Shown here: in pieces, positions 17,949-42,945 of the stretch
How the letters are laid out: each line of letters starts with the position of its first letter
How positions within the stretch are numbered: the first letter of the stretch is position 1
Assembly (NCBI GenBank): GCA_045802645.1
Contig: JBJMQQ010000013.1
Location: forward strand, 1,588-65,587
Length of the DNA: 64,000 bases
Direction: 5' to 3'
Source: Polyangia bacterium
GTDB taxonomy: Bacteria > Myxococcota_A > Polyangia > Fen-1088
Notes under the pieces: generated by a model
What the model was told of the DNA's origin: nothing
Database searches by the model: none
What the model saw: the letters and a program-made list of their open reading frames with translations, nothing else
Translations under genes and position numbers: made by a program

Positions 17949-18132
17949 GCAAACCTCCCGCGCTGCAGTCGGGGGGCACCGGCAACCACCCGGGGCGCCG
18001 GCACCGACGGATCCTGGCGAACCCGCATTATCTTCGATTTCGCTTCGGGACGCGCCAAAAAAGAGAGACTGAACGTGTCCTCAATTCAAAGGGCAGCGCC
18101 CCTTCCGGACCTTCATTGGACCTCCACGGCGG

Positions 18133-18161
18133 TTGACATTCGCCGCGCGGCGCGGCAATTC
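18133..18161 (+). promoter_or_regulatory. Putative sigma-70-type promoter for the metE riboswitch leader (TTGACA-N17-CAATTC)
   Basis: Perfect TTGACA at 18133-18138 and a weak -10 CAATTC 17 nt downstream, immediately 5' of the riboswitch P1 region. The architecture is shared with the nrdAB riboswitch promoter. Confidence 0.35.
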
Positions 18162-18365
18162 TGGCGTCCTGCTGGTGTCCCGGGGTTGATCCCTCGGGAC
18201 TGAAAAGGGAACCCGGTGAGAATCCGGGGCTGCCCCGCAGCGGTAAACGAGAACGACGTCCGCCACATGCACTGGTCCACCCGGACCGGGAAGCGGCGGG
18301 CCAAGGGACCCGGCGAAAGCCGGCAAGCTCGCGAGCCCGAAGACCTGCCAGCGGCTGACGTAGGG
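18162..18365 (+). ncRNA. Cobalamin (B12) riboswitch in metE 5' leader
   Basis: Contains tgAAAAGGGAAcccGGTGAGAATCCggGGCTGCCCCGCAGCGGTAAAcg (conserved cobalamin-riboswitch core) and the B12-box GCGAGCCCGAAGACCTGCCAGC, ~150 nt upstream of metE. Confidence 0.8.
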
Positions 18366-18507
18366 ACAAATCCTACGGCTGCAGATCCGTCGCCTCGCGG
18401 GAGGCCGGTGGGTCGATGGCCGGCGGTCTCCGTTCGTGCCTTTCGGCTCTCCGTGTCACCCGCGTGGCGGCTTCACGCCCGGGGGGGCGAGACCCAAGGA
18501 GAGATCG

Positions 18508-20868: not shown

Positions 20869-21848
20869 TAGGCCGAGACCCGCCGCTCGAAGAAGTTCGT
20901 GACCTCCTGGACGTCCTGCAGATCCATGAAGGGCAGCGGGTTGGCGGTCACGCCGTAGCGGCGGGGCATCCCCAGCGTCGCCAGGCGCCGGTCGGCGCAA
21001 TGTTCCAGATAGCGGCGGACGTCACCGACCGACAGGCCGGCGACGCCGCCGCCCAGCAGGTCCTCCGCGAACTGGGTCTCGCACTCGACGGCCTCGTCCA
21101 TCATGGCCGCCACCGCCCGCCCCAGCTCGGCGTCGAACAGCGCCGGCTCCTCGCGGCGGATGGTGGCGATCACCTCGAACGCGAACGCCATGTGCGCGCT
21201 CTCGTCGCGGAACACCCAGTTGGTGCCCGCGGCGAGGCCGTGCAAGAGGCCGCGTGACCGCAGGAAGTACACGTAGGCGAACGCGCCGAAGAAGAACAGC
21301 CCCTCCACGCAGGCCGCGAACGCGATCACGTTCAGCAGGAACTGTCGCCGATCCGCCTGGGTATCCAGGCGGGTGAGCGACTGGATCGAGTCCAGCCAGC
21401 GCATGCAGAACGCCGCCTTTTGCCGGATGGACGGGATGTTGTCGACGGCCGCGAAGGCGCGCGCCCGCTGTTCGGGGTCCGGCACGTAGGTGTCGAGCAG
21501 CGTCAGATAGAACTGCACGTGCAGCGCCTCCTCGTAGAGCTGCCGCGACAGGTACATCCGCGCCTCGGGCGCGTTGATGTGGCGATACAGGTTCAGCACC
21601 AGGTTGTTCGCCACGATGGAGTCGCCGGTCGCGAAGAACGCCACAAGCCGCTGGACCAGGTGGCGCTCGGCGTCGGTCATCTTGACGCCGAGGTCGCGCA
21701 CGTCCGTCGAGAAGTCGACCTCCTCGACCGTCCAGGTGTTCTTGATGGCGCCCCGGTACATGTCGAAGAACGCGGGGTAGGCCATGGGCCGCAACGTCAG
21801 GCAGAGCCCCGGATCCAGCAGCCGGGCAGGGCGCGCGCTGGCGTTCAT
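20823..21848 (-). CDS. nrdB: Ribonucleoside-diphosphate reductase beta subunit (class Ia)
   Basis: Last 341 codons of the artefactual ORF 20823..24110 give an R2-like ferritin fold (AFFATGDSIV..., EEALHVQFY, FRDESAHMAFAF). Start overlaps the nrdA stop (ATGA). Confidence 0.9.
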   Translation of the reverse strand: MNASARPARLLDPGLCLTLRPMAYPAFFDMYRGAIKNTWTVEEVDFSTDVRDLGVKMTDAERHLVQRLVAFFATGDSIVANNLVLNLYRHINAPEARMYLSRQLYEEALHVQFYLTLLDTYVPDPEQRARAFAAVDNIPSIRQKAAFCMRWLDSIQSLTRLDTQADRRQFLLNVIAFAACVEGLFFFGAFAYVYFLRSRGLLHGLAAGTNWVFRDESAHMAFAFEVIATIRREEPALFDAELGRAVAAMMDEAVECETQFAEDLLGGGVAGLSVGDVRRYLEHCADRRLATLGMPRRYGVTANPLPFMDLQDVQEVTNFFERRVSAYQVGVTGDVVLDASF

Positions 21849-24229
21849 TGGCAAGCCTCGCAAGACTCGGGGTTCTCCAGCGAGCAGGCGACGGCGTCGG
21901 CGTCCGCATTCACGTTCGCGACCGGCGCGTCCACCGTCGCCTTCGCGATCTTCGTGGCGGGACGCGAGCGCAGGTAGTACGTCGTCTTCAGCCCTCTTTG
22001 CCAGGCGTAGAAGTACATCGACGAGAGCTGGCCGATGTTCGGGCTCTCGATGAACAGGTTCAGCGACTGGCTCTGGTCGATGAACGCGCCACGGTCGGCG
22101 GCCATGTCGATGAGCGACCGCATCGGGAGCTCCCAGGCGGTCCGGTAGATCGCCCGCAGCGACTCCGGGAGCTCGGAGAGCCCCTGGACCGACCCCTCGG
22201 CCAGCTTCAGCCGGTTCCGCGTCGCGTCCGTCCAGAGGCCCAGCGCCTTCAGCTCCGCGACGAGGTACCGGTTGACCTGCAGGAAGTCGCCGGACAGCGT
22301 CTCGCGCTTGAACAGGTTCGAGACCTGCGGCTCGATGCACTCGCCGCAGCCCGCGATCGAGGCGATGGTGGCCGTCGGCGCGATGGCGATCAGCAACGAG
22401 TTGCGCAGGCCGACCTCCTGAATGCGAGTCCGCAGCGCCTCCCAGCGGGTCGGAGCGTCCGGGGTGACGCCCCAGGCCTGGAACTGCAGCTCGCCCCGGG
22501 CGGCGCGCGTCTCGGCGAACGACGGGTGCGCCCCTTTTTCCGCCGCCAGGTCGGCCGACGTGGTCAGCGCGTGAAAGTAGATCTCCTCGGCGATGCGGCG
22601 CGACAGCGCGCGCGCCTCGGGCGCGTCGAACGGCAGCCGGAGCTGGAAGAAGAGGTCCTGCAAGTCCATCACGCCCAGCCCGACAGGCCGCCAGCGCAGG
22701 TTCGAGGCCTGCGTACTGGGGATCGGATAGAAGTTGAGGTCGATCACCCGATCGAGCTGGCGCACGGCGATCTGCACCGTCCTGGCCAACTTGTCGAAGT
22801 CGAACACCACCGCGCCGTCGTCGGTGCGGCGGCTGTGGCGGGCCAGGTTGATCGACCCGAGGTTGCAGACGGCGGTCTCGTCCCCGGACGTTACCTCCAG
22901 GATCTCCGTGCACAGGTTCGACAGGTGCACGGTGCGCCCCGGCAGCGCCGTCTGGTTGCACGCGCGGTTGGACTTGTCCTTGAACGTCATCCAGCCGTTC
23001 CCGGTCTGCGCCAGCGTGCGCATCATCCGCGCGTAGAGGTCGCGCGCCTTCACGGTCCGGGCCGCCAGCCCCGCCGTCTCGGCGGATGCATAGGCGCGCT
23101 CGAACTCTTCGCCGTAAAGGTCGGGCAGCTCGGGCACCACCTTGGGATCGAACAGGCTCCAGTCCCCGTCGGACTCGACCCGCCGCATGAACAGGTCCGG
23201 CACCCAGTTCGCCAGGTTCAGGTTGTGCGTGCGGCTGGCGTCGTCGCCCGTGTTCTCGCGAAGGGACAGGAACTCCTCGATGTCGGCGTGCCAGGTCTCG
23301 AGATACACGCAGCAGGCGCCCTTGCGCTTGCCCCCCTGGTTCACGGCGGCGACCGAGGCGTCCAGCGTCTTCAGCCACGGGACGATGCCGTTCGAGTGGC
23401 CGTTCGTGCTCTCGATCAGCGACCCGCGCGAACGAACGCGGTGATACGCGAGCCCAATGCCGCCCGAGAACTTCGACAGCAGCGCCGCGTCCGTGTAGCG
23501 CTGGTAGATGCCGGCCAGGTGATCCGGCGGTGAGTCGAGCAGGAAGCAGCTGGACAGCTGCTCGTGCCGGGTGCCGGCGTTGAACATCGTCGGTGAGCTG
23601 GGCAGGTACTCCAGCGTCGAGAACAGCGCATAGAGGTCCAGCGCGCCCGCGACGGTGTCGGACAGCGCGCAGGCGATTCGCAGGAAGAAGTGCTGCGGCG
23701 TCTCGATCACGAGCCGCGTCTGCGGGTGCCGCAGCAGGTAGCGGTCGTAGAGCGTGCGTAGCCCGAAGTACTCGAACTCGTTGCTGCGCGCCGCGACGAC
23801 CGCGTCGTTCAGCTTGCGCGCGTGGGCCGTGACGAATGCGCTCAGTCGCTCGTTGGCCAGCCCGAGCCGGTGCGCGGTCACCACCGACTGAGAGAAGGCG
23901 TGAATCTCCTGACCGCGGACTTCCTTGTCGACGGTGGTCGCCAGCAGCCGCGCGGCCAGCTTCGCGTACTGCGGCTCCTCGACGATCAAGGCCGCGGCGG
24001 TCTGGATCGACAACTGATCCAGCTCGCGCGTGGTCGCCCCGTCGTAAAGGCCGCTGATCGTCTTGGTCGCGACGCGCATGGCGTCGACGTCGGGCAACCC
24101 GGCGCAGCACCGGTTCACCGCGCGGACGATCTTGTTGACGTCGACGGGTTCCCAGGCGCCGTTGCGCTTGCGGACCCGCATGGTCGTGTGCGGCACCATC
24201 GCCGCCTCGGTCTTCGTGGCTGTCAGCAT
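21845..24229 (-). CDS. nrdA: Ribonucleoside-diphosphate reductase alpha subunit (class Ia, with ATP-cone)
   Basis: ATP-cone MRVRKRNGAWEPVDVNKIVRAVN. Catalytic core (...CNLGSINL...). ATG 24229 is preceded by AGGAGGggacgc. Confidence 0.9.
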   Translation of the reverse strand: MLTATKTEAAMVPHTTMRVRKRNGAWEPVDVNKIVRAVNRCCAGLPDVDAMRVATKTISGLYDGATTRELDQLSIQTAAALIVEEPQYAKLAARLLATTVDKEVRGQEIHAFSQSVVTAHRLGLANERLSAFVTAHARKLNDAVVAARSNEFEYFGLRTLYDRYLLRHPQTRLVIETPQHFFLRIACALSDTVAGALDLYALFSTLEYLPSSPTMFNAGTRHEQLSSCFLLDSPPDHLAGIYQRYTDAALLSKFSGGIGLAYHRVRSRGSLIESTNGHSNGIVPWLKTLDASVAAVNQGGKRKGACCVYLETWHADIEEFLSLRENTGDDASRTHNLNLANWVPDLFMRRVESDGDWSLFDPKVVPELPDLYGEEFERAYASAETAGLAARTVKARDLYARMMRTLAQTGNGWMTFKDKSNRACNQTALPGRTVHLSNLCTEILEVTSGDETAVCNLGSINLARHSRRTDDGAVVFDFDKLARTVQIAVRQLDRVIDLNFYPIPSTQASNLRWRPVGLGVMDLQDLFFQLRLPFDAPEARALSRRIAEEIYFHALTTSADLAAEKGAHPSFAETRAARGELQFQAWGVTPDAPTRWEALRTRIQEVGLRNSLLIAIAPTATIASIAGCGECIEPQVSNLFKRETLSGDFLQVNRYLVAELKALGLWTDATRNRLKLAEGSVQGLSELPESLRAIYRTAWELPMRSLIDMAADRGAFIDQSQSLNLFIESPNIGQLSSMYFYAWQRGLKTTYYLRSRPATKIAKATVDAPVANVNADADAVACSLENPESCEACQ

Positions 24230-24287
24230 GCGTCCCCTCCTGCCTCCCGCGAGGCTCAGGTCATTGCCGGCGCGCATTTCGCGCGCG

Positions 24288-24499
24288 GGTGCTGGCAGGT
24301 CTTCGGGCTCGCGAGCGTGTCGGCCGTTTGGCCGCGTGCCTACCGTCCCCGGCTTCCCAACCCCGAAAGGGGATCAGTGCCGGCTCGGCTCGTCGCCAAG
24401 CTGGGGACTTCGTTCTCGCCTACCGCTGCGGGGCAGCCCCGGATTCCGACCGGGTTCCCTTTTGGCCCGCGAGACCATCCCCGCGGGTCACCAGCACAG
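24288..24499 (-). ncRNA. Cobalamin (B12) riboswitch in nrdAB 5' leader (minus strand)
   Basis: The reverse complement contains CAAAAGGGAAcccGGTcgGAATCCggGGCTGCCCCGCAGCGGTAgg and a B12-box GCTCGCGAGCCCGAAGACCTGCCAGC identical to the metE copy. A GCCTCGCGGGAGGC hairpin abuts the AGGAGG RBS. Confidence 0.75.
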
Positions 24500-24505
24500 G
24501 ACGCA

Positions 24506-24534
24506 ACGTAACGCACTGTATGGTCATGCGTCAA
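24506..24534 (-). promoter_or_regulatory. Putative promoter for nrdAB riboswitch leader (TTGACG-N17-TTACGT on minus strand)
   Basis: It has the same spacing and the same downstream GCGTCCTG(C/T)TGGTG start as the metE leader promoter. It lies in the 75-nt gap after the upstream gene stop. Confidence 0.3.
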
Positions 24535-32176: not shown

Positions 32177-32689
32177 ATGAAATGGTCTGGTATCGTCATC
32201 CCGATGCGCGCCTTCACGACCGCGGCCTGCCTGCTCTTCTCGGTCGCCGTTGGGTGCGGGTCGAGCTTACCGTCGGGCGCTGGCGGAATCGGGGGGATGG
32301 CGACCGGCGGGTCGTTCGGGACCGGCGGGGCCTCGGGCGGCACCGGGGGCGCGGACGCGGGTGCGCTGGCGGCGGTGTGCCGGTCCTTCGCACAGGCCTA
32401 CGCCGCGGCGCTGCCGGCGGCGGAGCGGTGTTCGGTCGGCGCGAGCGACCCCTGTGCCACCCTCGTTCCACAAGCCGTGTCGGGCGACGTCTGCGTGACG
32501 GGCTGCCAAGTCTACGTCAGCGACGCGACTGCGCTGAACGCGATCATGCAGGGCATGGAGCAGGCCGGTTGCTCCACCTTGACGGCGTGCTTTCTGGCGA
32601 TTGCCTGCGCGACCCCCGCGGCGGGCTTTTGCATGCCGGGTGACGGCGGCGACGGCCGTTGCCAGAACCTCTACAACGTCGCGCGCTAA
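32177..32689 (+). CDS. Small Cys-rich lipoprotein, hypothetical
   Basis: Lipobox SVAVGCGS, Gly-rich linker, 10 Cys in the mature part. Confidence 0.5.
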   Translation: MKWSGIVIPMRAFTTAACLLFSVAVGCGSSLPSGAGGIGGMATGGSFGTGGASGGTGGADAGALAAVCRSFAQAYAAALPAAERCSVGASDPCATLVPQAVSGDVCVTGCQVYVSDATALNAIMQGMEQAGCSTLTACFLAIACATPAAGFCMPGDGGDGRCQNLYNVAR

Positions 32690-32722: not shown

Positions 32723-33778
32723 CTAGGGCGCGGCGCGGGCCGCGGTGGCCAGGCTGGTTTGCACCGCCGATTCCAGCGCCCCCAGGTGATCGATCTGCGC
32801 GCTGACGGCGCGGAACCAATCGGTGGGGTCGACGCCGAAGCCGCCGCGGCGGTGGGCAATGGCGATCTGCTCCATCCGTTGCACGGCGGTGGCCACGTCC
32901 GAGGTCAGCTGCTCGTTCAGAAGGTCACGCGCGGGCGCCGGGGCCGCGTCCGTGAACAGATGCAAATAGCTGTCGCGCGCCGCGATGAGGCCCAGCAACG
33001 CCTGGTACTGGCCCTCGACGTAGCGGTCTCGCTCGAACGCGCTCACGAGCTGCGCGCGCTCGATCCCCGTCTTCTCTTTCGCGTTCAGCAGCGCGATCCA
33101 GGCCAGCGCCGTCGGCCGCTGCGCCGGGTCGGTGACCATCACCAGCAGCGCGTCGATGACCTGCAAGAACTCGCGGTTGAGCTGGCTGTAGGCTTCGATC
33201 AGCTCGGTCGGCCGCATCTTCAGCTTCTCGACGGCGGCGCGCGACGCGATGACGTCGGCCAGACGTTCGTCCGCGGCCGCCAGACGGCTCGCGATCCCGG
33301 GTGGCAGCCGCGCGCCGAACCGTTCGCGAAAAGCCGCGAAGTCGGCGCGGCATCGCTCGGTCGTGCGCCACTGCCGTGCCAGCTCCTCGCGGAACAGCCG
33401 CCCGCCCGACGCCGCGTACAGTGAAGAGACACCGCGCTCGCGCTGCGTCTCGTGGATGAGCGCGCTCAGGACACCGGTGGCTTCGTGGAACCGGGCCGGC
33501 TCCGTCGGTTCGATCAGCCGGCCCGGTCGGGGCGAGGTGCGCTGGAGGAACGCGATCTGTCTTTCGACTGCCGCGCCCTTCAGCACACCCGCCTCGACCG
33601 CCGCCTGCAACGCCGCCTCGAACGTCTCCCCCTCGAACTCGTGCATCTGCGTCCGGTCGGCGGCGTGGACGACCAGATTGATCGTGCGGACGTCGCCCTC
33701 GTACAACGCCTTCCCCCAGCCGTCCCCCGCCAGGCAGAACTGGACGATCCGTGTTGCTTCGTCGACCGTCAGTGCCAT
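32723..33778 (-). CDS. Stand-alone NIT (nitrate/nitrite-sensing) domain protein without recognisable output domain
   Basis: LIHETQRERGVSSLYAASGGRLFREELARQWRTTE matches the NIT-domain signature (HELQKERGxSAxYL). There is no ANTAR, HTH or kinase module. The ~80-aa N-terminal region is unknown. It is the last gene of the nirBD-narK operon side. Confidence 0.75.
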   Translation of the reverse strand: MALTVDEATRIVQFCLAGDGWGKALYEGDVRTINLVVHAADRTQMHEFEGETFEAALQAAVEAGVLKGAAVERQIAFLQRTSPRPGRLIEPTEPARFHEATGVLSALIHETQRERGVSSLYAASGGRLFREELARQWRTTERCRADFAAFRERFGARLPPGIASRLAAADERLADVIASRAAVEKLKMRPTELIEAYSQLNREFLQVIDALLVMVTDPAQRPTALAWIALLNAKEKTGIERAQLVSAFERDRYVEGQYQALLGLIAARDSYLHLFTDAAPAPARDLLNEQLTSDVATAVQRMEQIAIAHRRGGFGVDPTDWFRAVSAQIDHLGALESAVQTSLATAARAAP

Positions 33779-33841
33779 CCCGTCTAGCTTGTACCCGATG
33801 CGGTTAAGAGGTGGTTTCGGACCGGTACAATGTAAGTAACC

Positions 33842-35233
33842 TTAAATCCCGACCTGCGCCTCCGCCAGGTTGCGGACAGGCGCGGCGGCGGAGGCCGTCT
33901 TGCGGGCGTAGAACCACCACGTCAGCGCCACGCACGTGACGTAGAAGCCCAGGAACCCGCGCAGCGCCAGCTCGACGCCGCCCGTCGCGTGGATCGACGC
34001 GCCGAACGAGCGCGGGATCAGGTAGCCGCCGCAGGCGCCGATGGCGGACGTGAAGCCCAGGACGGCCGCGCTCTCGCGGCGGGCGACGGCCAGCGCCTGA
34101 CGCTCGGCCTCGGGGCCCTGGCCCTCGACGGCGCGCAGCTTCTCGCGACGGAAGATCACCGGGATCATGCGGAATGTCGAGCCGTTCCCGACGCCGGTCG
34201 TCACGAACAGCAGCAGGAACACCCCCAGGAATCCGCCGAACGAATGCTGGTGAACGAAGTGCGTCACCCCCAGCGTCGCCAGCCCCATGAGGACGAAGTT
34301 CCACATGGTCACGCGGGTGCCGCCGATCCGGTCGGCCAGCTTGCCGCCCAGCGGCCGCGCAATGGACCCGACCAGCGCGCCAAGGAAGGCGAGGTTCATC
34401 GTCACCTGCGGAAACTGCGTCTTCAGCAGCAGCGGAAACGCCGCCGAGTACCCGATGAACGAGCCGAACGTGCCGATGTAAAGCCACGACATCACCCAGG
34501 TGTGCTTGCTGCGCGTGACGGTGATCTGGTCGCGGAACGTCGAGCGCGCCGAGGCGAGATTGTTCATGAAGCGCGCCGCACCCAGCGCCGCGATCGCGAT
34601 GAGCGGCATCCAGAAGAGGCCCGCGTTCTCGAGGTGCAGCTTCGTCGTGGCGGCCAGGATGGGCACGGTCATGACCAGCGGGATCAATAGCTGGACCGTG
34701 CTGACGCCGATGTTGCCGCCCGCCGCGTTGAGCCCCAGCGCGAACCCCTTGGCGCGGTCCGGGTAGAAGAACGAGATGTTGGCCATGCTGGAGGCGAAGT
34801 TTCCGCCGCCCAGTCCGGCCGTCGCCGCCGCCATCGCCATCAACCAGAACGGGGTCGACGGATCACGAACCAGCAGCACCAGCGCCGTCGTCGGGATGAA
34901 CAGCAGCAGCGCGCTGACGATCGTCCAGTTTCGGCCGCCGAAGCGCGGGACCGCGAACGTGTACGGGAACCGCATCAACGACCCGATGAGCCCGGGCAAC
35001 GCCACCAGCGAGAAGAGCTGCTCCGTCGTGTAGTGGAATCCGACCTTGTTGAGGCGGGGCGCCACGACGCTCCAGATCAGCCACACCGAGAACCCGATGT
35101 TCTCGGCCAGGATCGACCAGATCAGGTTGCGGCGCGCCACGCGCCGGCCCGTCTGGCGCCAGAACGTCTCGTCTTCGGGGTTCCACTCGCTGATCCAGTG
35201 CGGACCCGTGTGAGCTTCTTTCGCGGTCTTCAT
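33842..35233 (-). CDS. narK: Nitrate/nitrite transporter, MFS NNP family
   Basis: 12-TM MFS protein with NNP-like GLNAAGGNIGVS signature. ATGA coupling to nirD. Confidence 0.88.
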   Translation of the reverse strand: MKTAKEAHTGPHWISEWNPEDETFWRQTGRRVARRNLIWSILAENIGFSVWLIWSVVAPRLNKVGFHYTTEQLFSLVALPGLIGSLMRFPYTFAVPRFGGRNWTIVSALLLFIPTTALVLLVRDPSTPFWLMAMAAATAGLGGGNFASSMANISFFYPDRAKGFALGLNAAGGNIGVSTVQLLIPLVMTVPILAATTKLHLENAGLFWMPLIAIAALGAARFMNNLASARSTFRDQITVTRSKHTWVMSWLYIGTFGSFIGYSAAFPLLLKTQFPQVTMNLAFLGALVGSIARPLGGKLADRIGGTRVTMWNFVLMGLATLGVTHFVHQHSFGGFLGVFLLLFVTTGVGNGSTFRMIPVIFRREKLRAVEGQGPEAERQALAVARRESAAVLGFTSAIGACGGYLIPRSFGASIHATGGVELALRGFLGFYVTCVALTWWFYARKTASAAAPVRNLAEAQVGI

Positions 35234-35625
35234 TGTCGGACTCCGTTTCGCGGCGCGATGCCGATTGCGACCCGGCCGTCGCGCACACGGACCGGGTAGA
35301 CGGGGAGCTTCACCAAGGGGTCGTCGAAGCAGGCGCCCGTCTCCAGGTCGAACGTCTGCTTGTAGATGGGGGAGGCGATCTTGGGGCGGCCGCCGCGGTC
35401 GCCCACGATGCCGCGGGCGATCACGAAGGCCTGACTGAACGGGTCGTAGTTCGACAGCGCGTAAACGCGGTCGCCCTCGTCGGGGCGAACCAGCGCGATC
35501 TGGCGGTCGCCGACCAGCGCAGCGACCCCGCTGGCGGGCGGGATGTCGTCCAGCGCGCAGGTGTCGATCCAGATGACGTCGGGCTCGGGCGCGGCCAGCG
35601 CTTCGACGTGGATGGCGACGCTCAT
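35230..35625 (-). CDS. nirD: Nitrite reductase [NAD(P)H] small subunit (Rieske-like)
   Basis: 131-aa C-terminal part of the shadow ORF 35230..37347 (MSVAIHVEALAAPEPDVIWIDTCALDDIPP...). Flanked by ATGA overlaps with nirB and narK. Confidence 0.85.
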   Translation of the reverse strand: MSVAIHVEALAAPEPDVIWIDTCALDDIPPASGVAALVGDRQIALVRPDEGDRVYALSNYDPFSQAFVIARGIVGDRGGRPKIASPIYKQTFDLETGACFDDPLVKLPVYPVRVRDGRVAIGIAPRNGVRQ

Positions 35626-38180
35626 GCCGCCTCCTTCTTGGCCGCGTGGGCTGGATCGGCGAGGCGGTCCAGCAGGTCGCGCTTTTCGTCGGGGTGGGCC
35701 GGGCGCGGTTGCCCGCGCTCGCGGATGAAGACCAGGCTGGGATCGGCGGCGGGGCTGTTCACGAACCCGCGGAACTGGGCCAGCTTCTGCGGGTCCTCCA
35801 GCGCGTCCTTCCACTCGCACTTGTACGTGCCGACCACGTGAGCCATCTCGGCTTCCAGCTCGGCGCCGATGCCCAGCTTGTCGTCGACGACCACCTCGCG
35901 CAGATACGCGATGCCCCCCTCGAGGTTGTTGAGCCAGCCGGCGGTCCGCTGCAGCCGGTCGGCCGTGCGGATGTAGAACATCAGGAAGCGGTCGATGTAC
36001 TGGACCAGCGTCGCCTCGTCGAGGTCGGTCGCCAGGAGCTGCGCGTGCTGCGGCTTCATGCCGCCGTTGCCGCAGACGTAGAGGTTCCACCCCTTCTCCG
36101 TCGCGATGATCCCGAAGTCCTTCCCCTGCGCCTCGGCGCACTCGCGCGCGCACCCGGACACGGCCGACTTCAGCTTGTGGGGGCTGCGGAGCCCCTTGTA
36201 GCGGTTCTCGATCCGCACGGCCAGGCCGACGGAGTCCTGCACGCCGTAGCGGCACCAGGTGTCGCCGACGCAGGACTTCACGGTCCGCAGCGACTTGCCG
36301 TAGGCGTGGCCGGACTCGAACCCGGCCGCGACCAGGTCGCGCCAGATCAGCGGAAGCTGGTCGACGCGCGCCCCCAGCATGTCGATGCGCTGGGCGCCCG
36401 TGATCTTGGTGTAGAGGCCGTACTTCTTGGCGATCTCGCCGATCGTGACCAGCTGGTCGGGCGTGATCTCGCCGGCCGCGACGCGCGGGATCACCGAGTA
36501 GGTTCCGTCGCGCTGGATGTTGGCCAAAAATCGATCGTTGGTGTCCTGCAGCGGGCGGTGCTTGCGTTCCAGCACCGGCTCGTTCCAGGCGGACGCCAGG
36601 ATGGACGCCACCGCCGGCTTGCAGATCTCGCAGCCGCGCCCGCGCCCGTGCCGCGCGATCAGCTCGTCGAACGTCTTCAGCTTGTGGACGCGCACGAGCT
36701 GATAAAGGTCCTGGCGCGAGCAGGGGAAGTGCTCGCAGAGCGCGTTGTTGACGGCGACGCCGGCCTTCTTCAGCTCGATCTTCAGGAGGTCGTTCAGCAA
36801 CGGCACGCAGGAGCCGCAGCTGGTGCCGGCGCGCGTGCAGCTCTTGAGGGCGCCGACGGCCTGCGCGCCCCCCGCGATCGCCTGGCAGATGGCCCCCTTG
36901 TCGACGTTGTTGCAGCTGCAGATGGTGGCCGACGCGGGCAGGCTGTCGACGCCCATTCCGGCGGGCGCCTCGCCGGGCGGCAGCAGCAGCGCCTCGACCT
37001 TCACGGGCAGCGCCGCCTTGCTCTGGACCATCGCGACCAGCTGCGCGTACTGCGACGCGTCCCCGACCAGGATGCCGCCCAGCAGGCGCTGGCGGTCGGC
37101 CGAGACGACCAGCTGCTTGTAGACGCCCGCCACGTTGTCGATGAGGCGCAGCGTGTGGGCGCCGCCCTCCAGGCCGAACGCGTCGCCGAAGCTGGCGACG
37201 TCCACGCCCAGCAGCTTCAGCTTGGTGCTCATGTCGAAGTGACCGAGGTGCCGGCCCGCCGTCTCGGCCAGCTCGTCGGCGGCGACCTGCGCCATCGTGT
37301 AGCCGGGCGCGACCAGGCCGTAGCAGCGGCCGTCCCAGGCCGCGCACTCGCCGATGGCCAGGATGTCGGGGTCGGAGGTGCGGCAGCGGGCGTCGATCTC
37401 GATGCCGCCGCGCTGCCCCACCGCCAGGCCGGCGGCGCGCGCCAGCTCGTCGCGCGGGCGCACGCCGGCGGAAAAGACGATCAGCGACGCGTCCAGCGCG
37501 CCACCGTCGGAGAGCTGCAACCCCATCGCGCGTCCCGTCTCGTCCGTCAGCACGCGCTTGGCGGAGACGCCGGTGTGGACGGCCACGCCCAGCGTCTCGA
37601 TGTGGCGGCGCAGGATGGCGCCGCCGGCGTCGTCGATCTGCAGCGCCATCAGCCGGGGCGCGATCTCGATGACGTGGGTCTCGAGGCCCAGGTTACGCAG
37701 CGCGTTCGCCGCTTCCAGCCCCAGCAAGCCGCCCCCGATGACCACGCCCACGCCGGCCGAAGCGACCGATGCGGCCGCGGCGATGGCCTCCAGGTCTTCG
37801 ATCGTGCGGTAGACGAAGCAGCCGGGGGCGTCGCGCCCCTCGACGGGGGGGACGAACGGCGACGACCCGGTGGCCAGCACCAGCTTGTCGTAAGGGAGCG
37901 TCACGCCGGCCGCGGTGCGGACCACCTTGGCGGCGCGATCGATCGAGGCGACCGCGTCACTCAGGACCAGGCGGATGCCCGCCGTTTCGTAAGCTTCGCG
38001 TGAGGTCAGCGCCAGCGGCTCGGCGCCGCCGTCGAAGAACTTCGTGAGGTTGACGCGATCGTAGGCGGGCCGGGGCTCTTCGCCGACCACCGTGATGTCG
38101 AAGTGGCCGGCGTCGCGGCACAGCTCGACCAGCCGGTGTCCGACCATTCCGTTTCCGACGATGACCAGTTGGGGTGCCAT
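35622..38180 (-). CDS. nirB: Nitrite reductase [NAD(P)H] large subunit (FAD/NAD, BFD-like 2Fe-2S, sirohaem-4Fe4S domains)
   Basis: MAPQLVIVGNGMVGHRL... Rossmann fold, CSCNNVDKGAICQAI BFD-like motif, sulfite/nitrite reductase haem-binding region CVGDTWCRYG...SGCARECAEA. Confidence 0.92.
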   Translation of the reverse strand: MAPQLVIVGNGMVGHRLVELCRDAGHFDITVVGEEPRPAYDRVNLTKFFDGGAEPLALTSREAYETAGIRLVLSDAVASIDRAAKVVRTAAGVTLPYDKLVLATGSSPFVPPVEGRDAPGCFVYRTIEDLEAIAAAASVASAGVGVVIGGGLLGLEAANALRNLGLETHVIEIAPRLMALQIDDAGGAILRRHIETLGVAVHTGVSAKRVLTDETGRAMGLQLSDGGALDASLIVFSAGVRPRDELARAAGLAVGQRGGIEIDARCRTSDPDILAIGECAAWDGRCYGLVAPGYTMAQVAADELAETAGRHLGHFDMSTKLKLLGVDVASFGDAFGLEGGAHTLRLIDNVAGVYKQLVVSADRQRLLGGILVGDASQYAQLVAMVQSKAALPVKVEALLLPPGEAPAGMGVDSLPASATICSCNNVDKGAICQAIAGGAQAVGALKSCTRAGTSCGSCVPLLNDLLKIELKKAGVAVNNALCEHFPCSRQDLYQLVRVHKLKTFDELIARHGRGRGCEICKPAVASILASAWNEPVLERKHRPLQDTNDRFLANIQRDGTYSVIPRVAAGEITPDQLVTIGEIAKKYGLYTKITGAQRIDMLGARVDQLPLIWRDLVAAGFESGHAYGKSLRTVKSCVGDTWCRYGVQDSVGLAVRIENRYKGLRSPHKLKSAVSGCARECAEAQGKDFGIIATEKGWNLYVCGNGGMKPQHAQLLATDLDEATLVQYIDRFLMFYIRTADRLQRTAGWLNNLEGGIAYLREVVVDDKLGIGAELEAEMAHVVGTYKCEWKDALEDPQKLAQFRGFVNSPAADPSLVFIRERGQPRPAHPDEKRDLLDRLADPAHAAKKEAA

Positions 38181-38216
38181 CGAGATTCACGGTAGGGGAG
38201 TCCACGTTTCTCGATG
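38176..38216 (-). promoter_or_regulatory. 9-bp perfect inverted repeat enclosing nirB start codon (CCATCGAGA-N23-TCTCGATGG)
   Basis: Read from the sequence. The 3' arm on the mRNA contains ATG 38178-38180. Confidence 0.35.
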
Positions 38217-38332
38217 GTCAAGACACGGTCAAAGGTCGTTAATTCTGCCGCCGCAGCGTCGGCTGCGTTGTTTACGGCTGTTGGCCGAATCTTGACGCCG
38301 ACGAAACGTGCGCCAGCGGATGCTGATCATCG

Positions 38333-40432
38333 ATGGATCCCACGCCCGCGACGAGCACCGCGACGCGCACGCACTGCCCTTACTGCGCGTTCCAGTGCGG
38401 GATGCTGGTCAGCCCCGGTGAGGTGAAAGGCGATCCCGACTTTCCCGTCAACCGCGGTCAGATGTGTGTCAAAGGATTCACCGCCGGCGAGCTCCTGGCG
38501 CACCCGGCGCGGCTGACGACGCCGCGCTTGCGCGGGCGCGACGGGCGCCTCGTCGACGCGAGCTGGGACGCCGCCCTGGACTTCGTCGCCGAGCGACTGC
38601 TGGCGCTGCGCGCCGCGCACGGGCCGGCGTCGCTGGCCGCGTTCGGAAGCGGCGCCCTCACCAACGAGAAGGCGTATCTGCTGGGAAAGTTCGTGCGGGT
38701 CGCGCTGGGTTCGCCGAACATCGACTACAACGGGCGCTACTGCATGGCGTCCGCGGCGGCCGGTCAGAACCGGGCGTTCGGGATCGATCGCGGCTTGCCG
38801 TTCCCCGTTGCCGACATCGCGCGCACGAAGACGTTGCTGCTGTGGGGCGCCAACTCGGTCGACACGATGCCGCCGCTGGCGCAGTGGATCGGCGAGCAGC
38901 AGGCGCAGGGACAGCTGATCGTCGTCGACCCGCGCCGGTCCGAGACCGCGCGGCGCGCAGACCTGCACCTGCAGCTCACGCCGGGCACCGACCTCGCGCT
39001 GGCCAACGGCCTCCTGCACCTGGCGATTGACGAGCGGCTGATCGACACCGCGTACATCGCCGCCCGGACCGTCGGGTTCGAGGCGGTGCGGCGGACGGTG
39101 ATGGAGGTTCACCCGGCGCACGTCGAGCGTCTGACCGGCGTGTCGATCGACGACCAGCTGCGGACGGTGCGGCGACTGGCCGTCGAGGACAGCGCCATGC
39201 TGCTGTCGGGGCGCGGTCCCGAGCAGCAGGCCAAGGGCTCGGAGACGGTGCTGGCGTTCACCAACTTGATGCTGGCGCTGGGCAAGGTGGGGCGCCCCTA
39301 CAGCGGCTACGGCTGCCTGACCGGGCAGGGCAACGGGCAGGGCGGGCGCGAGCACGGCCAGAAGGCGGACCAGTTGCCGGGCTACCGATCGATCGAAGAC
39401 GCGTCCGACCGGGCGGCTGTCGCGCGCGTGTGGGGCGTCGACCCGGCGACGTTGCCGCCGAAGGGCAAGAGCGCCTACGAGCTGCTGGACAGCCTGGGGC
39501 CGGAGGGCGGCATCCGCGGCCTGCTGGTCTTCGGGTCGAACGTGGCGGTCGCTTCGCCGAACGCGCGAAACATCGTGCGCAAGCTGGCGGCGCTGGACCT
39601 GCTGGTCGTCTGCGACGCCTTCGACAACGAGACCGCGGCGGACGCGCACGTGCTGCTGCCGACGCTTCAGTGGGCCGAGGAAGAGGGGACCATGACCAAT
39701 CTGGAAGGGCGCGTGCTCTTGCGTGAGCGAGCCGTGCCGCCGCCCGTCGGGCCGCGCAGCGATCTCGAAATCTTGTCCCAGCTGGCCGCGCGGCTGGGGC
39801 ACGGCGACAAGTTCCAGTTCGCCTCGGCCGAAGCGGTGTTCGACGAGCTGCGCGCCGCGACGGCCGGCGCGCGCGCCGATTACAGCGGGATCAGCCACGC
39901 CCGCATCCGGCGCGAGCAAGGGGTGTTCTGGCCATGCCCGGCCGAGGATCACCCGGGCACGCCGCGCCTCTTCGCCGAGAAGTTCGCGTTTGCCGACGGG
40001 CGCGCCCGGTTCCACGCCGTCCGGCACCGGCCGTCGGCCGAGGTGCCCGACGGCGAGTACCCGCTCTACTTCACGACCGGGCGGTACCGGGAACATTACA
40101 ACTCGGGGGCGCAGACCCGCCGCGTGCCGGCGCTGGTGCGCGCGCGGCCCGAAGCGCGCCTGCAGGTTCACCCACGGCTGGCGGCGCGGCTGGGCGTGGC
40201 GGACGGCGAGGCGCTGCTGCTGGAGAGCCGGCGCGGCACGGCCACGTTCACCGTCGAGCTCACCGCCGACGTTCGCCCCGACACGCTGTTCGCGCCGTTT
40301 CACTGGGGCGGTTCGTCTTGCGCAAATCTACTGACGAACCCGGCGCTGGACCCGCTGAGCCGGATGCCGGAGTTCAAGGTCTGCGCCGTGCGCGCCCGGG
40401 CGGCGGGCGCCGGCGAAAGGGCGGCGTCGTGA
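38333..40432 (+). CDS. nasA: Assimilatory nitrate reductase catalytic subunit (molybdopterin oxidoreductase, N-terminal 4Fe-4S)
   Basis: N-terminal CPYCAFQCGM...C Fe-S motif. Molybdopterin oxidoreductase and MopB C-terminal domains. Confidence 0.9.
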   Translation: MDPTPATSTATRTHCPYCAFQCGMLVSPGEVKGDPDFPVNRGQMCVKGFTAGELLAHPARLTTPRLRGRDGRLVDASWDAALDFVAERLLALRAAHGPASLAAFGSGALTNEKAYLLGKFVRVALGSPNIDYNGRYCMASAAAGQNRAFGIDRGLPFPVADIARTKTLLLWGANSVDTMPPLAQWIGEQQAQGQLIVVDPRRSETARRADLHLQLTPGTDLALANGLLHLAIDERLIDTAYIAARTVGFEAVRRTVMEVHPAHVERLTGVSIDDQLRTVRRLAVEDSAMLLSGRGPEQQAKGSETVLAFTNLMLALGKVGRPYSGYGCLTGQGNGQGGREHGQKADQLPGYRSIEDASDRAAVARVWGVDPATLPPKGKSAYELLDSLGPEGGIRGLLVFGSNVAVASPNARNIVRKLAALDLLVVCDAFDNETAADAHVLLPTLQWAEEEGTMTNLEGRVLLRERAVPPPVGPRSDLEILSQLAARLGHGDKFQFASAEAVFDELRAATAGARADYSGISHARIRREQGVFWPCPAEDHPGTPRLFAEKFAFADGRARFHAVRHRPSAEVPDGEYPLYFTTGRYREHYNSGAQTRRVPALVRARPEARLQVHPRLAARLGVADGEALLLESRRGTATFTVELTADVRPDTLFAPFHWGGSSCANLLTNPALDPLSRMPEFKVCAVRARAAGAGERAAS

Positions 40433-41877
40433 GCGCGCGCAAGCGGCGGCTGGTGATCGTCGGCAACGGGATGGCGACCTGCCGCCTCCTCGACGAGCTC
40501 GAGCGCCGCGGCGGCTTCGATCGGTACGAGGTGAGCGTCTTCGGCGACGAGCGCGGCGGCGCGTACAACCGCGTGCTGCTCAGCAAGGTGCTGGCCGGCG
40601 ACGAGCCGGACGCGATCGTCACCAAGCCGCCGGGTTGGTTCGCGGATCGGGGCGTTCGGTTGCACGACGGCGTCGCCGTGCGGCGCCTCGACACGGAGGC
40701 CAAGCAGGTCGAGACCACCGACGGCGCGACCCACCGCTACGACGTCGCGGTGCTGGCCACGGGCAGTCAGCCGCGGGTGCCGCCGCTCGACGGCATGACG
40801 GGCGACGACGGCGATCTGCGCCCCGGCGTCTTCGTCTACAGGACCATGGACGACTGCGTGCGGATGCGGGCCCACGCGCGCTCGGGCGACGCGGCCGTCG
40901 TGCTGGGCGGCGGCCTGCTGGGACTCGAAGCGGCGAAGGTGCTGAGCGACGCGGGGCTGCACGTCACCGTCGTGCACGCGGCGCGCACGCTGATGAACGC
41001 CCAGCTCGACGAGCTGGGGGGCGAAATGCTCGAACGCCAGATCGAATCCCACGGCATCTTCGTGCGCACGGGCCGCACCATCGAGGCGGTGGTCGGCGAG
41101 GCGACCGTCGAGGGCGTGCGCCTGGACGACGGCAAGGTGCTGGCGGCGGAGCTGCTGGTGCTGGCCTGCGGCGTGCGGCCGCGCATCGACGTCGCGCGCG
41201 CCTCGGGGCTGCCCATCAACAACGGCGTCATCGTGAACGACACGCTGGCCACGGAGGCGGCCGGTGTGTACGCGATTGGCGACTGCGCCGAGCACGCCGG
41301 GCGCACCTACGGCATCGTCGCCCCGGCCTGGGAGCAGGCCGCGGTGCTGGCCGACGTGTTGACCGGCGCCAACCCGCAGGCGCGCTATCGCGGCTCGAAG
41401 ACGTACACGCGCCTCAAGGTGGCCGGCGTCGACGTCGCCTCGATGGGGCGCATCGATCCAGAGCTGGAACGGGACGAGGTGATCCAGGTCGTCGAGACGC
41501 GCCGCGGGTCGTACCGAAAGCTGATCGTGCGCGGCAACGAGCTCATCGGCGCGATGCTGGTCGGCAACACGGCCGCCGCGCCCGCGCTGGTGCAGGCGCT
41601 GGACCGGGGCGATCCGCTGCCCGACGATCCGCTGGAGGCGCTCTGCCCGAACGCCGGCGCCGCCGCTCCGGCCTGCGCCGACCGCCTGGTGTGCAACTGC
41701 AACGCCGTCCCGGAGTCGCGCCTGCGCGAGGCCATTGCTGCCGGCGCGAACACCGTCGAGGAGCTGGCCCTGGCCACCCGCGCCGGCACCGGCTGCGGCT
41801 CCTGCAAGACCGAGCTGGCGCAGATCCTGAGACGCGAAGCGGCGGTGCGGCTCCCGACGCTCGCGGCGGCGGGCTAG
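40429..41877 (+). CDS. Assimilatory nitrate reductase electron-transfer subunit (FAD-dependent pyridine nucleotide-disulfide oxidoreductase with C-terminal BFD-like 2Fe-2S domain)
   Basis: GTG start overlapping the nasA stop (GTGA). LVIVGNGMATCRLLDEL Rossmann fold. C-terminal CNCNAVPESRLREA...TGCGSCKTE BFD-like motif. Confidence 0.8.
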   Translation: MSARKRRLVIVGNGMATCRLLDELERRGGFDRYEVSVFGDERGGAYNRVLLSKVLAGDEPDAIVTKPPGWFADRGVRLHDGVAVRRLDTEAKQVETTDGATHRYDVAVLATGSQPRVPPLDGMTGDDGDLRPGVFVYRTMDDCVRMRAHARSGDAAVVLGGGLLGLEAAKVLSDAGLHVTVVHAARTLMNAQLDELGGEMLERQIESHGIFVRTGRTIEAVVGEATVEGVRLDDGKVLAAELLVLACGVRPRIDVARASGLPINNGVIVNDTLATEAAGVYAIGDCAEHAGRTYGIVAPAWEQAAVLADVLTGANPQARYRGSKTYTRLKVAGVDVASMGRIDPELERDEVIQVVETRRGSYRKLIVRGNELIGAMLVGNTAAAPALVQALDRGDPLPDDPLEALCPNAGAAAPACADRLVCNCNAVPESRLREAIAAGANTVEELALATRAGTGCGSCKTELAQILRREAAVRLPTLAAAG

Positions 41878-41937: not shown

Positions 41938-42945
41938 TCAGAACACCAGCGGCACGTCGACCTGCACCATGTTGTACGACGAGTTGCTGAGCGGCGCGTC
42001 CAGGGCGCGGGCGTAGGAGATCCCGGGGCGCAGGAACATTCCACGGCCGACCGCGAAGTGCGCGCGCGGGCCGATGGCGACGGTGGTGGTGTCCTTGTTG
42101 GCGGAGGGGATGTCGCTCTTCGTGCCCATCACCACCCGCGTCGGCGTGCTCAGCCACCGCTGGTAGCGGAGCTCGGCGCCGACCGACAGAAACGGCAGCA
42201 GGAAGTACCCGGCGTGCAGACCCATCGTCGAGTTCGTGCGCGCCGCGTCGCTGCTCTGGCCGCCGGCGTCGTCTCCGTGCACGCGCAGGAGCTGGAACAG
42301 GGTCGCTTCGGCCTGCACGGTCAAGCGGTGGTCGACGTACGCCACGTCGGCGCCCACGATCCCGGTGAAGTAGTTGACCGCGAACATCGCGTTGTCCATG
42401 CCCGATCGGGCCTGAAGGCCCGCCGTGTTGGCCGCCGCGACGCCTGCATCCGGGTGGTCGCCGCTGCCTGCGCCGATGGGGATCGTGCCGCCCGCGAACG
42501 CCGCCCAGCGGACGCTCCCGGCGCGCCGCGCGTAGGTCAGGCCCACGATCGGGTTGATGAACGACGAGCCGTCCGGCGCCGCGCCCGGTGCCTGGTTCTG
42601 AACGAATCCCAGACGCAGGAGCGGCGCCAGGTGCGACGTCACCGCGTAGCTGCCCAGCAGCATCGTGGCCACCGTGGACCCACTGGCGCCGGCCGTGTCG
42701 TAGAACGCGACCGAGCTGTCCGACCGCACGACGCTGGCCGCCGCCGCCGGTCGGAGCTGCCAGGGGATCGAATAGGGTGGCGGCGGCGTGGGGGCCGTGG
42801 CGCTGGGCGGCGCGACGGCGACGGCCGTCGCTTCGGGCGCAACACTGTCTGCGCCGCGTGCGACGCCGCCCAGAACGCCGGCCGCACAGGCCGCCGCCAA
42901 GGCCGTGGAATTTCGGAACCAGCGGTGAAATTTCAGTTCGGTCAT
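41938..42945 (-). CDS. Outer-membrane beta-barrel protein (C-terminal Phe), function unknown
   Basis: Signal peptide. Alternating amphipathic beta-strand pattern. Terminal ...VQVDVPLVF. Confidence 0.55.
   Translation of the reverse strand: MTELKFHRWFRNSTALAAACAAGVLGGVARGADSVAPEATAVAVAPPSATAPTPPPPYSIPWQLRPAAAASVVRSDSSVAFYDTAGASGSTVATMLLGSYAVTSHLAPLLRLGFVQNQAPGAAPDGSSFINPIVGLTYARRAGSVRWAAFAGGTIPIGAGSGDHPDAGVAAANTAGLQARSGMDNAMFAVNYFTGIVGADVAYVDHRLTVQAEATLFQLLRVHGDDAGGQSSDAARTNSTMGLHAGYFLLPFLSVGAELRYQRWLSTPTRVVMGTKSDIPSANKDTTTVAIGPRAHFAVGRGMFLRPGISYARALDAPLSNSSYNMVQVDVPLVF

Follow-up and report, generated by a model that had tools for sequence, protein, structure and literature searches.

Nitrate-specific control of nitrate assimilation is established as antitermination (NasR, NasS/NasT) or as the work of DNA-binding co-activators (NnaR, NtcB). 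In the NasS-NasT system, a nitrate-binding protein releases an ANTAR regulator. In NasR, nitrate relieves the autoinhibition of the NIT-ANTAR protein (PMC7496416), and two invariant arginines, R50 and R176, are critical for the response, since NasR-based sensors no longer respond to nitrate once these are substituted; a further arginine, R236, is less important than these two (PMC9581486, PMC7496416). In actinomycetes, NnaR and GlnR cooperate at the nirB, narK, and nasA promoters, and the GlnR box has the form gTnAc-n6-GaAAc with 11-bp phasing (PMC10704036). Here we describe a gene at positions 32723..33778 (minus strand) of a 64-kb stretch of Polyangia DNA (contig JBJMQQ010000013.1; the whole stretch is referred to as the window), encoding a 351-residue protein with two domains, of which the C-terminal one is a NIT nitrate/nitrite sensor (the NIT gene). 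This family joins NIT to neither of the established mechanisms, but to a small domain without known relatives. The window protein is probably the nitrate-specific regulator of its nas cluster, and there is about an even chance that it controls the nas regulon in response to nitrate or nitrite, its N-terminal domain being the effector at a class of box promoters shared by the cluster.

The NIT gene was identified from the list of open reading frames (ORFs) and their translation, with the ATG at 33778 and the stop codon at 32723-32725. Its G+C content at third codon positions is 0.87, as for real genes in this window of about 70% G+C. It is preceded in the same orientation, after a gap of 63 nt, by the stop codon (33842-33844) of narK, which encodes a NarK-type major facilitator superfamily (MFS) transporter (33842-35233, minus strand; Pfam/NCBIfam and translation). 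Upstream of narK lie nirD (35230-35625, minus strand; Pfam/NCBIfam), the ATG of which overlaps the nirB stop codon, and nirB itself (35622-38180, minus strand; TIGR02374, E 0). With the gene pairs nirB-nirD and nirD-narK overlapping on translation, nirB-nirD-narK (33842..38180, minus strand) is, as read from these sequence matches, an operon for assimilatory nitrite reductase and a nitrate/nitrite transporter. Divergently from nirB run the genes for a nasC-like molybdopterin nitrate reductase (38333-40432, plus strand; Pfam/NCBIfam) and a NasB-like FAD/BFD flavoprotein (40429-41877, plus strand; Pfam/NCBIfam), the start of the latter being set by its 482-residue orthologue in locus L001. An earlier note on this DNA had described the 351-residue NIT protein, its position 63 nt after narK in the same orientation, and the nirB-nirD-narK operon, all of which were borne out.

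A search of 5.8 billion proteins returned 84 homologues, nearly all of 340-385 residues with query coverage of 97-100%, down to about 42% identity; those with names belong to Polyangia metagenome-assembled genomes (MAGs) and carry no annotation beyond 'nitrate- and nitrite sensing domain-containing protein'. The full-length homologues number about 80, and uncultured Polyangia/Myxococcota are the source of all of them. Family alignments of 27 and 77 sequences were made, and AlphaFold2 on the 77-sequence alignment gave for the whole protein a mean predicted local distance difference test (pLDDT) of 94.3 and a predicted template-modelling score (pTM) of 0.74. This pTM, despite a pLDDT of 94, suggests that in the model the two domains are not rigidly oriented toward each other. 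The linker between them (residues 83-96; 33491..33532, minus strand) is variable and disordered, with pLDDT below 50 at residues 87-90 and insertions of up to about 45 residues in homologues. Neither a signal peptide nor a transmembrane segment was found in the window protein, and the Kyte-Doolittle maximum of 1.07 over 19 residues indicates no hydrophobic segment, so that the protein is soluble and cytoplasmic; only in this respect does the proposal of the earlier note, that it could act as a periplasm-independent nitrate-binding protein, hold.

The NIT domain (residues 97-351; 32726..33490, minus strand) was delimited by Pfam, PDB profile, and structure comparison. The note had suggested checking the boundaries of PF08376, and had named a degenerate C-terminal ANTAR or helix-turn-helix (HTH) domain as the observation that would speak against its description. 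The Pfam profile matched residues 106-343 (model 1-238 of 239) with an E-value of 6.7e-44 and 151.5 bits against a cut-off of 24.9, and no such C-terminal domain was detected by profile or by model. The sole PDB relative by family profile was NasR (4AKK, E 1.9e-27, query positions 96-351). In the AlphaFold2 model this part of the protein consists of helices from residue 97 to 349, and its Foldseek comparison with 4AKK (E 6e-8, root-mean-square deviation 2.2 Å over 255 columns, 24% identity; nothing else significant) shows that the predicted structure has the all-helical double four-helix-bundle fold of NasR. The domain is complete, and since the profile and the last predicted helix reach residue 343-349 of 351, there is no space for a hidden C-terminal domain; a cryptic ANTAR or HTH at this end is thereby ruled out. 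In the whole protein, no ANTAR, kinase, GGDEF, methyl-accepting chemotaxis protein (MCP), HTH, or other known output module was found by Pfam and NCBIfam at E<=0.1, in agreement with what had been noticed before. In the profile alignment, E114-R115-G116 corresponds to E49-R50 of NasR (the 'ERG' motif) and E240-R241 to E175-R176 ('QERA'). R115 and R241 are invariant among the 77 homologues and their glutamate and glycine partners are invariant or nearly so; the counterpart of NasR R236 is E303 and hence not conserved. By analogy with NasR, it is a well-founded inference that the NIT domain of the window protein binds nitrate or nitrite.

Residues 1-82 (33533..33778, minus strand) form a second domain, delimited from the alignments and AlphaFold2. 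In the model of the whole protein it is compact, and its predicted elements (a1 5-15 or 5-16, b1 20-27, b2 30-38, b3 43-50, a2 53-62, a3 68-81) follow the topology alpha-beta-beta-beta-alpha-alpha; modelled alone, it folds equally well, with a pLDDT of 92.1 and a pTM of 0.82. The mean column identity is 64%, with the consensus MxLGxxEATRIVRFCLAGDGWG...RFEGxTFExAL..AGVLK..CVEKQIAFL, and the invariant residues include F14, C15, G22, F48, E54, A60, G64, L66, Q74, and F77. In the NIT family the domain is acidic (mean net charge -1.9, isoelectric point (pI) 5.5) and devoid of the basic motifs of double-stranded RNA-binding domains (dsRBDs). None of its 35 sequences gave a meaningful Pfam match in a search to E<=10, the PDB profile search gave no sequence match at E<=0.1 and no known family up to E<=10, and Foldseek against PDB gave nothing at E<=0.001. 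The top Foldseek matches were weak (E 0.026-0.1, TM-score 0.41-0.53) and comprised dsRBDs and HPF/YfiA, with the alpha-beta-beta-beta-alpha topology in common; no DNA-binding fold was among them, and no recognisable DNA-binding domain (HTH, winged helix) was found in residues 1-84 by Pfam, PDB, or Foldseek. Identification as a dsRBD was rejected; the topology is shared, but the best match has an E-value of 0.026 with TM-scores of 0.41-0.53, and the domain is acidic. By these comparisons, it is a previously undescribed domain.

The distribution of the N-terminal domain is narrow. A profile search of 1.84 billion representative proteins gave only 39 matches, most of which were members of the same NIT family or fragments thereof at contig ends, and among 185,579 species genomes it was found in only 14 loci, all in MAGs of uncultured Myxococcota/Polyangia, some of them labelled 'Proteobacteria'. 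Short matches that might have been free-standing copies turned out to be contig-end fragments or frameshifts, and neither the window nor any locus yielded a second copy. The earlier note had described a stand-alone NIT protein with an unknown N-terminal region of about 80 residues. The region is real and unannotated and no known output domain is present, but it is a conserved domain that folds independently (pLDDT about 92) rather than a mere region, and it also occurs on MarR proteins. Being folded, conserved, and carried by MarR regulators, it is the obvious candidate for the output module.

The fusion to MarR is the sole other architecture of the N-terminal domain found. Three proteins of 255-272 residues (P0110, P0112, P0113; E 7e-11 to 2e-9) are headed by the domain, and a follow-up search gave about 40 proteins of 237-294 residues (including these three and P0120-P0155; genes at L007 6290-7057 and in L025-L028) in which it precedes a MarR winged-helix domain. 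Their C-terminal halves match PF01047 and PF12802, and are 45-50% identical to ordinary MarR proteins of 140-170 residues. The residues R-R/T-I-L/V-x-F-C in helix a1 and F-E-x-x-T/S-x-E-x-x-L...G...C/V-I/V-E-K/R-Q-I-A-F in b3-a2-a3 are common to both architectures, and in both a linker comes next that is rich in Pro/Ala or variable in other ways. Both faces of helix a3 (C/V-E-K/R-Q-I-A-F) are conserved. Cys15 does not vary in either architecture, and a second Cys opening helix a3 (C-V/I-E-K/R-Q) was observed in the three full-length MarR fusions that were read and in many NIT-type proteins, with Ala (residue 70) in its place in the window protein; some members of the family may use the two cysteines for redox chemistry or to bind a ligand. 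With respect to gene context, two of seven MarR-fusion genes lie in nitrogen-assimilation operons, that of P0113 after nirB-nirD-nasC-nasB and before a CLC channel gene, and that of P0139 convergent with cynS and a gene set for an NrtA-like ABC transporter. A third is followed by a gamma-glutamyltranspeptidase gene, and the remaining four contexts are unrelated to nitrogen. In the literature, no paper was found on the combination of the N-terminal domain with NIT, on its MarR fusion, or on the promoter association described below.

When the nirB-nasC intergenic regions of five loci were aligned, that of the window being 152 bp long, the outer blocks were conserved and the centre was variable. 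The conserved blocks consist of boxes of 5 nt that recur in 11-bp phase, the last of them separated by 11 nt from a -10-like hexamer. In the promoter-like region of nirB (38189..38242, minus strand), TTAAC-n5-TTGAC-n6-TTGAC-n6-GAAAC is followed after 11 nt by TACCGT and after a further 8 nt by the ATG, this block being conserved in L001, L013, L015, and L018; in that of nasC (38281..38324, plus strand), TTGGC-n6-TTGAC-n6-GAAAC is followed after 11 nt by GATGCT, again 8 nt from the ATG. A gene for a porin-like protein is preceded by TTGAC-n6-GAAAC-n11-TACCGT (42995-42963, minus strand), with 17 nt to the ATG and the ribosome-binding site GGAGGG. The arrangement is the one classically seen with OmpR/PhoB/GlnR-type regulators, whose sites are direct repeats at 11-bp intervals that take the place of the -35 element and stop about 11 nt short of the -10 element. 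The form and phase of the actinomycete GlnR box were recognised at the nirB, nasC, and porin-like promoters, as a resemblance to an actinomycete consensus; GlnR-like boxes are unexpected in Myxococcota, and no OmpR-family GlnR gene was found in the window. Readings of the motif as sigma-54 or extracytoplasmic-function (ECF) sigma promoters were rejected by eye because of unsuitable spacings. The motif TTRAC-N6-GAAAC occurs three times in the window, exactly at the nirB, nasC, and porin-like sites, against 0.02 expected. This promoter class of the nas cluster was seen in the window and in L001, L013, L015, L018, L046, L125, and L138.

The NIT gene also carries these boxes. The spacer between narK and the NIT gene contains a promoter-like region (33786..33840, minus strand) in which GTTAC-n6-TGTAC-n6-GAAAC-n6-TTAAC (33840-33803) is followed after 11 nt by CAAGCT (33791-33786) and after 7 nt by the ATG. 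The reversed arrangement GAAAC-N6-TTRAC occurs once in the 64 kb, before the NIT gene, against 0.01 expected, and GAAAC-n6-(TTRAC/GAAAY/TCGAC) was found upstream of the NIT gene at the equivalent place in every one of the 14 distinct loci, even in those with a solitary NIT gene. Having thus its own copy of the regulon promoter, the gene is part of the circuit that regulates its presumed targets. The MarR-fusion genes of four loci show a related pattern; in L025-L028, GAAAC-n6-GAAAC, 11-12 nt, and TATACC lie 45-65 nt before the fusion gene, and such a box pair is the sole match in each locus of about 20 kb. NIT-type and MarR-type proteins share nothing but the N-terminal domain, and the genes of both stand behind box promoters, which links the domain to this promoter class.

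The pattern TTGAC-n6-GAAAC-n11-TACCGT was also scanned through metagenomes, where the matches listed were mostly due to chance in low-GC DNA. Among the matches listed, 26 instances were in contigs with G+C of at least 0.60, and for the 20 of these with a readable downstream gene the product was NirB (8), the porin-like protein (4), NarK-like (1), NirD (1), BtpA-like (3), or unclear (3); two further instances (L081, L104) have flanks like those of nirB promoters with no downstream ORF readable. No other gene of nitrogen assimilation, be it glnA, amtB, or a urease gene, stood behind the motif in the high-GC contigs among the matches listed. In three very large contigs with G+C of 0.72 (L040, L059, L060), probably from another phylum, the motif with a further upstream GAAAT box was observed 6 nt before a gene for a BtpA-like protein of 259 residues, where it may be a genuine GlnR-type site or a chance occurrence.

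The NIT gene adjoins nirBD, nasC, or narK nearly always where the flanks allow this to be seen, in tandem, convergent, leading, and operon-end positions. Four loci (L001, L013, L015, L046; 70-91% identity to the window protein) have an arrangement identical to that of the window. In five others (L016-L019, L138; about 60% identity) the gene faces narK-nirDB in convergent orientation, frequently across a porin-like gene; it heads an MFS-nasC-nirBD row in L003 (58% identity), is the last in a nirB...narK-nasC-nasB row in L125 (63% identity), and in L004 and L005 (44-50% identity) is convergent with nirBD or nasC, with no narK nearby. The NIT gene is likewise present on all three long nirB contigs among the listed matches of the metagenome scan. 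That it stays linked to genes for nitrite and nitrate reductases despite shuffled order is a pattern typical of a dedicated regulator or accessory factor. The earlier view of the gene as appended to the operon is therefore to be modified: the tight nas/nir linkage stands, but the gene has its own box array in the 63-nt spacer and other gene orders in other genomes.

No regulator other than the NIT gene was found in or beside the nas cluster of the window, and no second regulator is consistently present across the related loci. No ANTAR, REC, or NasT protein was found among about 40 predicted window ORFs scanned (five ORFs at 56.6-64.0 kb lay outside the scan) or among the genes tabulated for the related loci, and the only other signalling protein among the scanned ORFs is an unrelated histidine kinase 18 kb away. 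Three neighbours were considered as a partner regulator and rejected. In a distant subclade, a conserved gene of about 190 codons is always divergent and just upstream of the NIT gene (L004 3385-3948, L005 3022-3609, L022, L023, L024), but it encodes a secreted protein; a neighbour of 335-348 residues is a porin-like outer-membrane protein; and the convergent 170-residue ORF at 32177-32689 of the window encodes a Cys-rich lipoprotein.

From these observations, a mechanism may be proposed in which the NIT gene supplies the nitrate/nitrite-specific signal input of the nas regulon in this uncultured Polyangia clade. By analogy with the autoinhibition of NasR, binding of nitrate or nitrite to NIT would change the availability of the tethered N-terminal domain, and the domain thus freed would act at transcription initiation on the box promoters, the mode of action not being antitermination in a leader RNA. 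Most likely, it would contact the OmpR/GlnR-like activator occupying the boxes, or RNA polymerase, as a co-activator comparable to NnaR for GlnR; less likely, it would bind to the boxes itself. Contact with a DNA-bound activator or RNA polymerase is favoured because the domain is acidic, no DNA-binding fold was seen, the box geometry is that of winged-helix response regulators, and NnaR-GlnR provides a precedent.

Several points weigh against this proposal. It could be a general nitrogen regulator that uses the boxes, the NIT gene being no more than one target of it, and nitrate binding and conformational coupling are both extrapolated from NasR. Foldseek gave no significant structural relative for the N-terminal domain, the best match having an E-value of 0.026 (TM-score 0.41-0.53). 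Nor is the domain confined to nitrate, since of the seven MarR-fusion contexts five lie outside nitrogen assimilation. In addition, the metagenome scan was biased toward orthologous nirB and porin promoters, since their -10 sequence formed part of the pattern.

Post-translational control of NarK, NirBD, or NasC is a serious rival, although on balance we regard it as unlikely. Under this explanation, the protein senses cytoplasmic nitrate or nitrite and its N-terminal domain binds NarK, NirBD, or NasC, tuning uptake or reduction (e.g., against nitrite build-up) with no control of transcription. The direct adjacency to narK in most close homologues, the lack of a recognisable DNA- or RNA-binding domain, and the suitability of an acidic, flexibly tethered domain for protein-protein contact are all as it would predict, but the order relative to each enzyme gene varies, the fusion of the domain to MarR transcription factors points to a role in transcription, and the box promoter carried by both NIT and MarR-fusion genes resembles a regulatory loop. 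Action by protein-protein contact, as suggested in the earlier note, is possible, but NarK is a disfavoured partner, since L004 and L005 have no narK near the gene.

It is likewise doubtful that the protein is a one-component transcription factor in which the N-terminal domain is a new DNA-binding domain for the TTGAC/GAAAC boxes, controlled by nitrate on NIT. No other regulator-like protein is consistently encoded in the nas clusters, the N-terminal domain is the sole element shared by two types of gene with box pairs at the same promoter position, and helices a2 and a3 with the invariant A60 and G64 loosely recall a helix-turn-helix on reading the alignment and model by eye. Against these stand the acidity of the domain (pI about 5.5), the lack of a DNA-binding fold among the structural matches, and 11-bp repeats ending 11 nt from the -10 hexamer, which are of the OmpR/PhoB/GlnR-type geometry (GlnR box, PMC10704036); the MarR fusions would then also have two DNA-binding domains. 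In a broader form that includes an adaptor, the N-terminal domain would be an effector module for the phased TTGAC/GAAAC promoters, either a new DNA-binding fold or an adaptor to a box-bound activator, combined in evolution with NIT and with MarR, and the window protein would be a new one-component nitrate-responsive transcription regulator of leaderless nirB and nasC in Myxococcota; this is possible, and we advance it tentatively.

That the protein has no signalling output, being a cytoplasmic nitrate/nitrite-binding or buffering protein or a receptor remnant that is merely co-expressed, would agree with the lack of a known output domain, but is very unlikely in view of the two-domain architecture, length, and N-terminal surface residues conserved to about 42% identity in some 80 proteins, the conservation of helix a3 on both faces, and the reuse of the domain on MarR regulators.

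A NasR-like antiterminator would require a leader RNA. With -10-like hexamers 8 nt from the ATG, the nirB and nasC mRNAs are, as read from the sequence, probably leaderless, and no hairpin or terminator leader was found at either gene. The sole terminator-like intergenic hairpin, at 38252-38267, separates the two divergent box arrays and is upstream of each promoter, and it shows no conservation. Rfam gave no match in the nas cluster, only two cobalamin riboswitches elsewhere in the window. Near-leaderless nirB and nasC together with overlapping operon genes (nirB-nirD, nirD-narK) leave no substrate for NasR/NasT-type antitermination. An N-terminal domain resembling a dsRBD that binds leader RNA and relieves termination with nitrate is therefore the least probable explanation, its alpha-beta-beta-beta-alpha topology, the dsRBD and HPF/YfiA matches at the top of Foldseek, and the NasR precedent of NIT coupled to RNA binding (PMC7496416) notwithstanding, for those matches are not significant and the domain is acidic and without basic dsRBD motifs.

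The other genes near the NIT gene include that for the porin-like secreted protein of 335 residues (CDS 41938-42945, minus strand), without a Pfam match. With its C-terminus ...VQVDVPLVF, the sequence looks like that of an outer-membrane beta-barrel protein, and it may be a nitrate/nitrite-specific outer-membrane channel; the gene (335-348 residues in homologues) accompanies the NIT gene and narK in L016, L017, L019, L022, and L138. The 170-residue lipoprotein encoded convergently with the NIT gene (32177-32689, plus strand) has a Gly-rich linker and a Cys-rich C-terminal domain, again without a Pfam match. Elsewhere in the window, one cobalamin riboswitch (18156-18366, plus strand) precedes the gene for the cobalamin-independent methionine synthase MetE (18364-20868), and the other (24277-24510, minus strand) that for the large subunit of a class I-type ribonucleotide reductase (21845-24277). 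An adjoining gene pair of the DUF1552 (HXXSHH) and DUF1592/1588/1595/1585 (PSD/PSCyt) types, best known from Planctomycetes, occupies 14896-18080 (minus strand), and the same pair is also found near MarR-fusion genes in L009 and L026.

Finding what the N-terminal domain binds would define a new signalling output, and its target would explain the switching of nitrate use in abundant uncultured soil myxobacteria. The lack of cultured hosts limits the interest. The box motif suggests a GlnR-like promoter logic outside Actinobacteria, and the protein is a possible compact, soluble nitrate-responsive module for the design of biosensors, beside the NasR-based sensors.

Among the described systems, NasR of Klebsiella oxytoca, the NIT-ANTAR one-component antiterminator (4AKK), resembles the window protein in being a soluble protein of the cytoplasm. 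The NIT domains of the two are homologous (24% identity, 2.2 Å) and share the two critical arginines, each protein has a second domain on a partly disordered linker, and both are encoded with genes for nitrate/nitrite assimilation. The window protein differs in that no C-terminal ANTAR was detected (E<=0.1), its extra domain is alpha/beta and N-terminal to NIT, whereas that of NasR is helical and C-terminal, and its target genes have essentially no leader RNA, which makes antitermination unlikely. The NasS-NasT system of Paracoccus and Pseudomonas, also encoded in nas clusters, is similar with respect to a nitrate sensor that lacks its own nucleic-acid-binding domain and works via a protein partner, but NasS has the NrtA-like periplasmic-binding-protein fold instead of NIT, and no ANTAR partner was found in the scanned ORFs of the window or in the related loci. 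The membrane-bound receptors with periplasmic NIT (NIT-HAMP-MCP, NIT-histidine kinase, NIT-GGDEF) share the sensor family PF08376, but they signal via a helix leaving the C-terminus of NIT, whereas the window protein has no transmembrane segment and ends at the last NIT helix. The GlnR/NnaR system of actinomycetes, acting on nirB, narK, and nasA, is close in box form (gTnAc-n6-GaAAc) and 11-bp phasing (PMC10704036), and offers in NnaR the precedent of a pathway-specific co-activator alongside a general nitrogen regulator; it differs in that the host here is a member of Myxococcota, NnaR consists of a HemD-like and a DNA-binding domain, not NIT, and no GlnR homologue was identified in the window. 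The NIT sensor domain and, in general terms, cytoplasmic nitrate receptors encoded in nas clusters are already known; the position of an extra domain N-terminal to NIT, the domain itself, its fusions to MarR, and its link to near-leaderless promoters resembling the GlnR box in Myxococcota are new.

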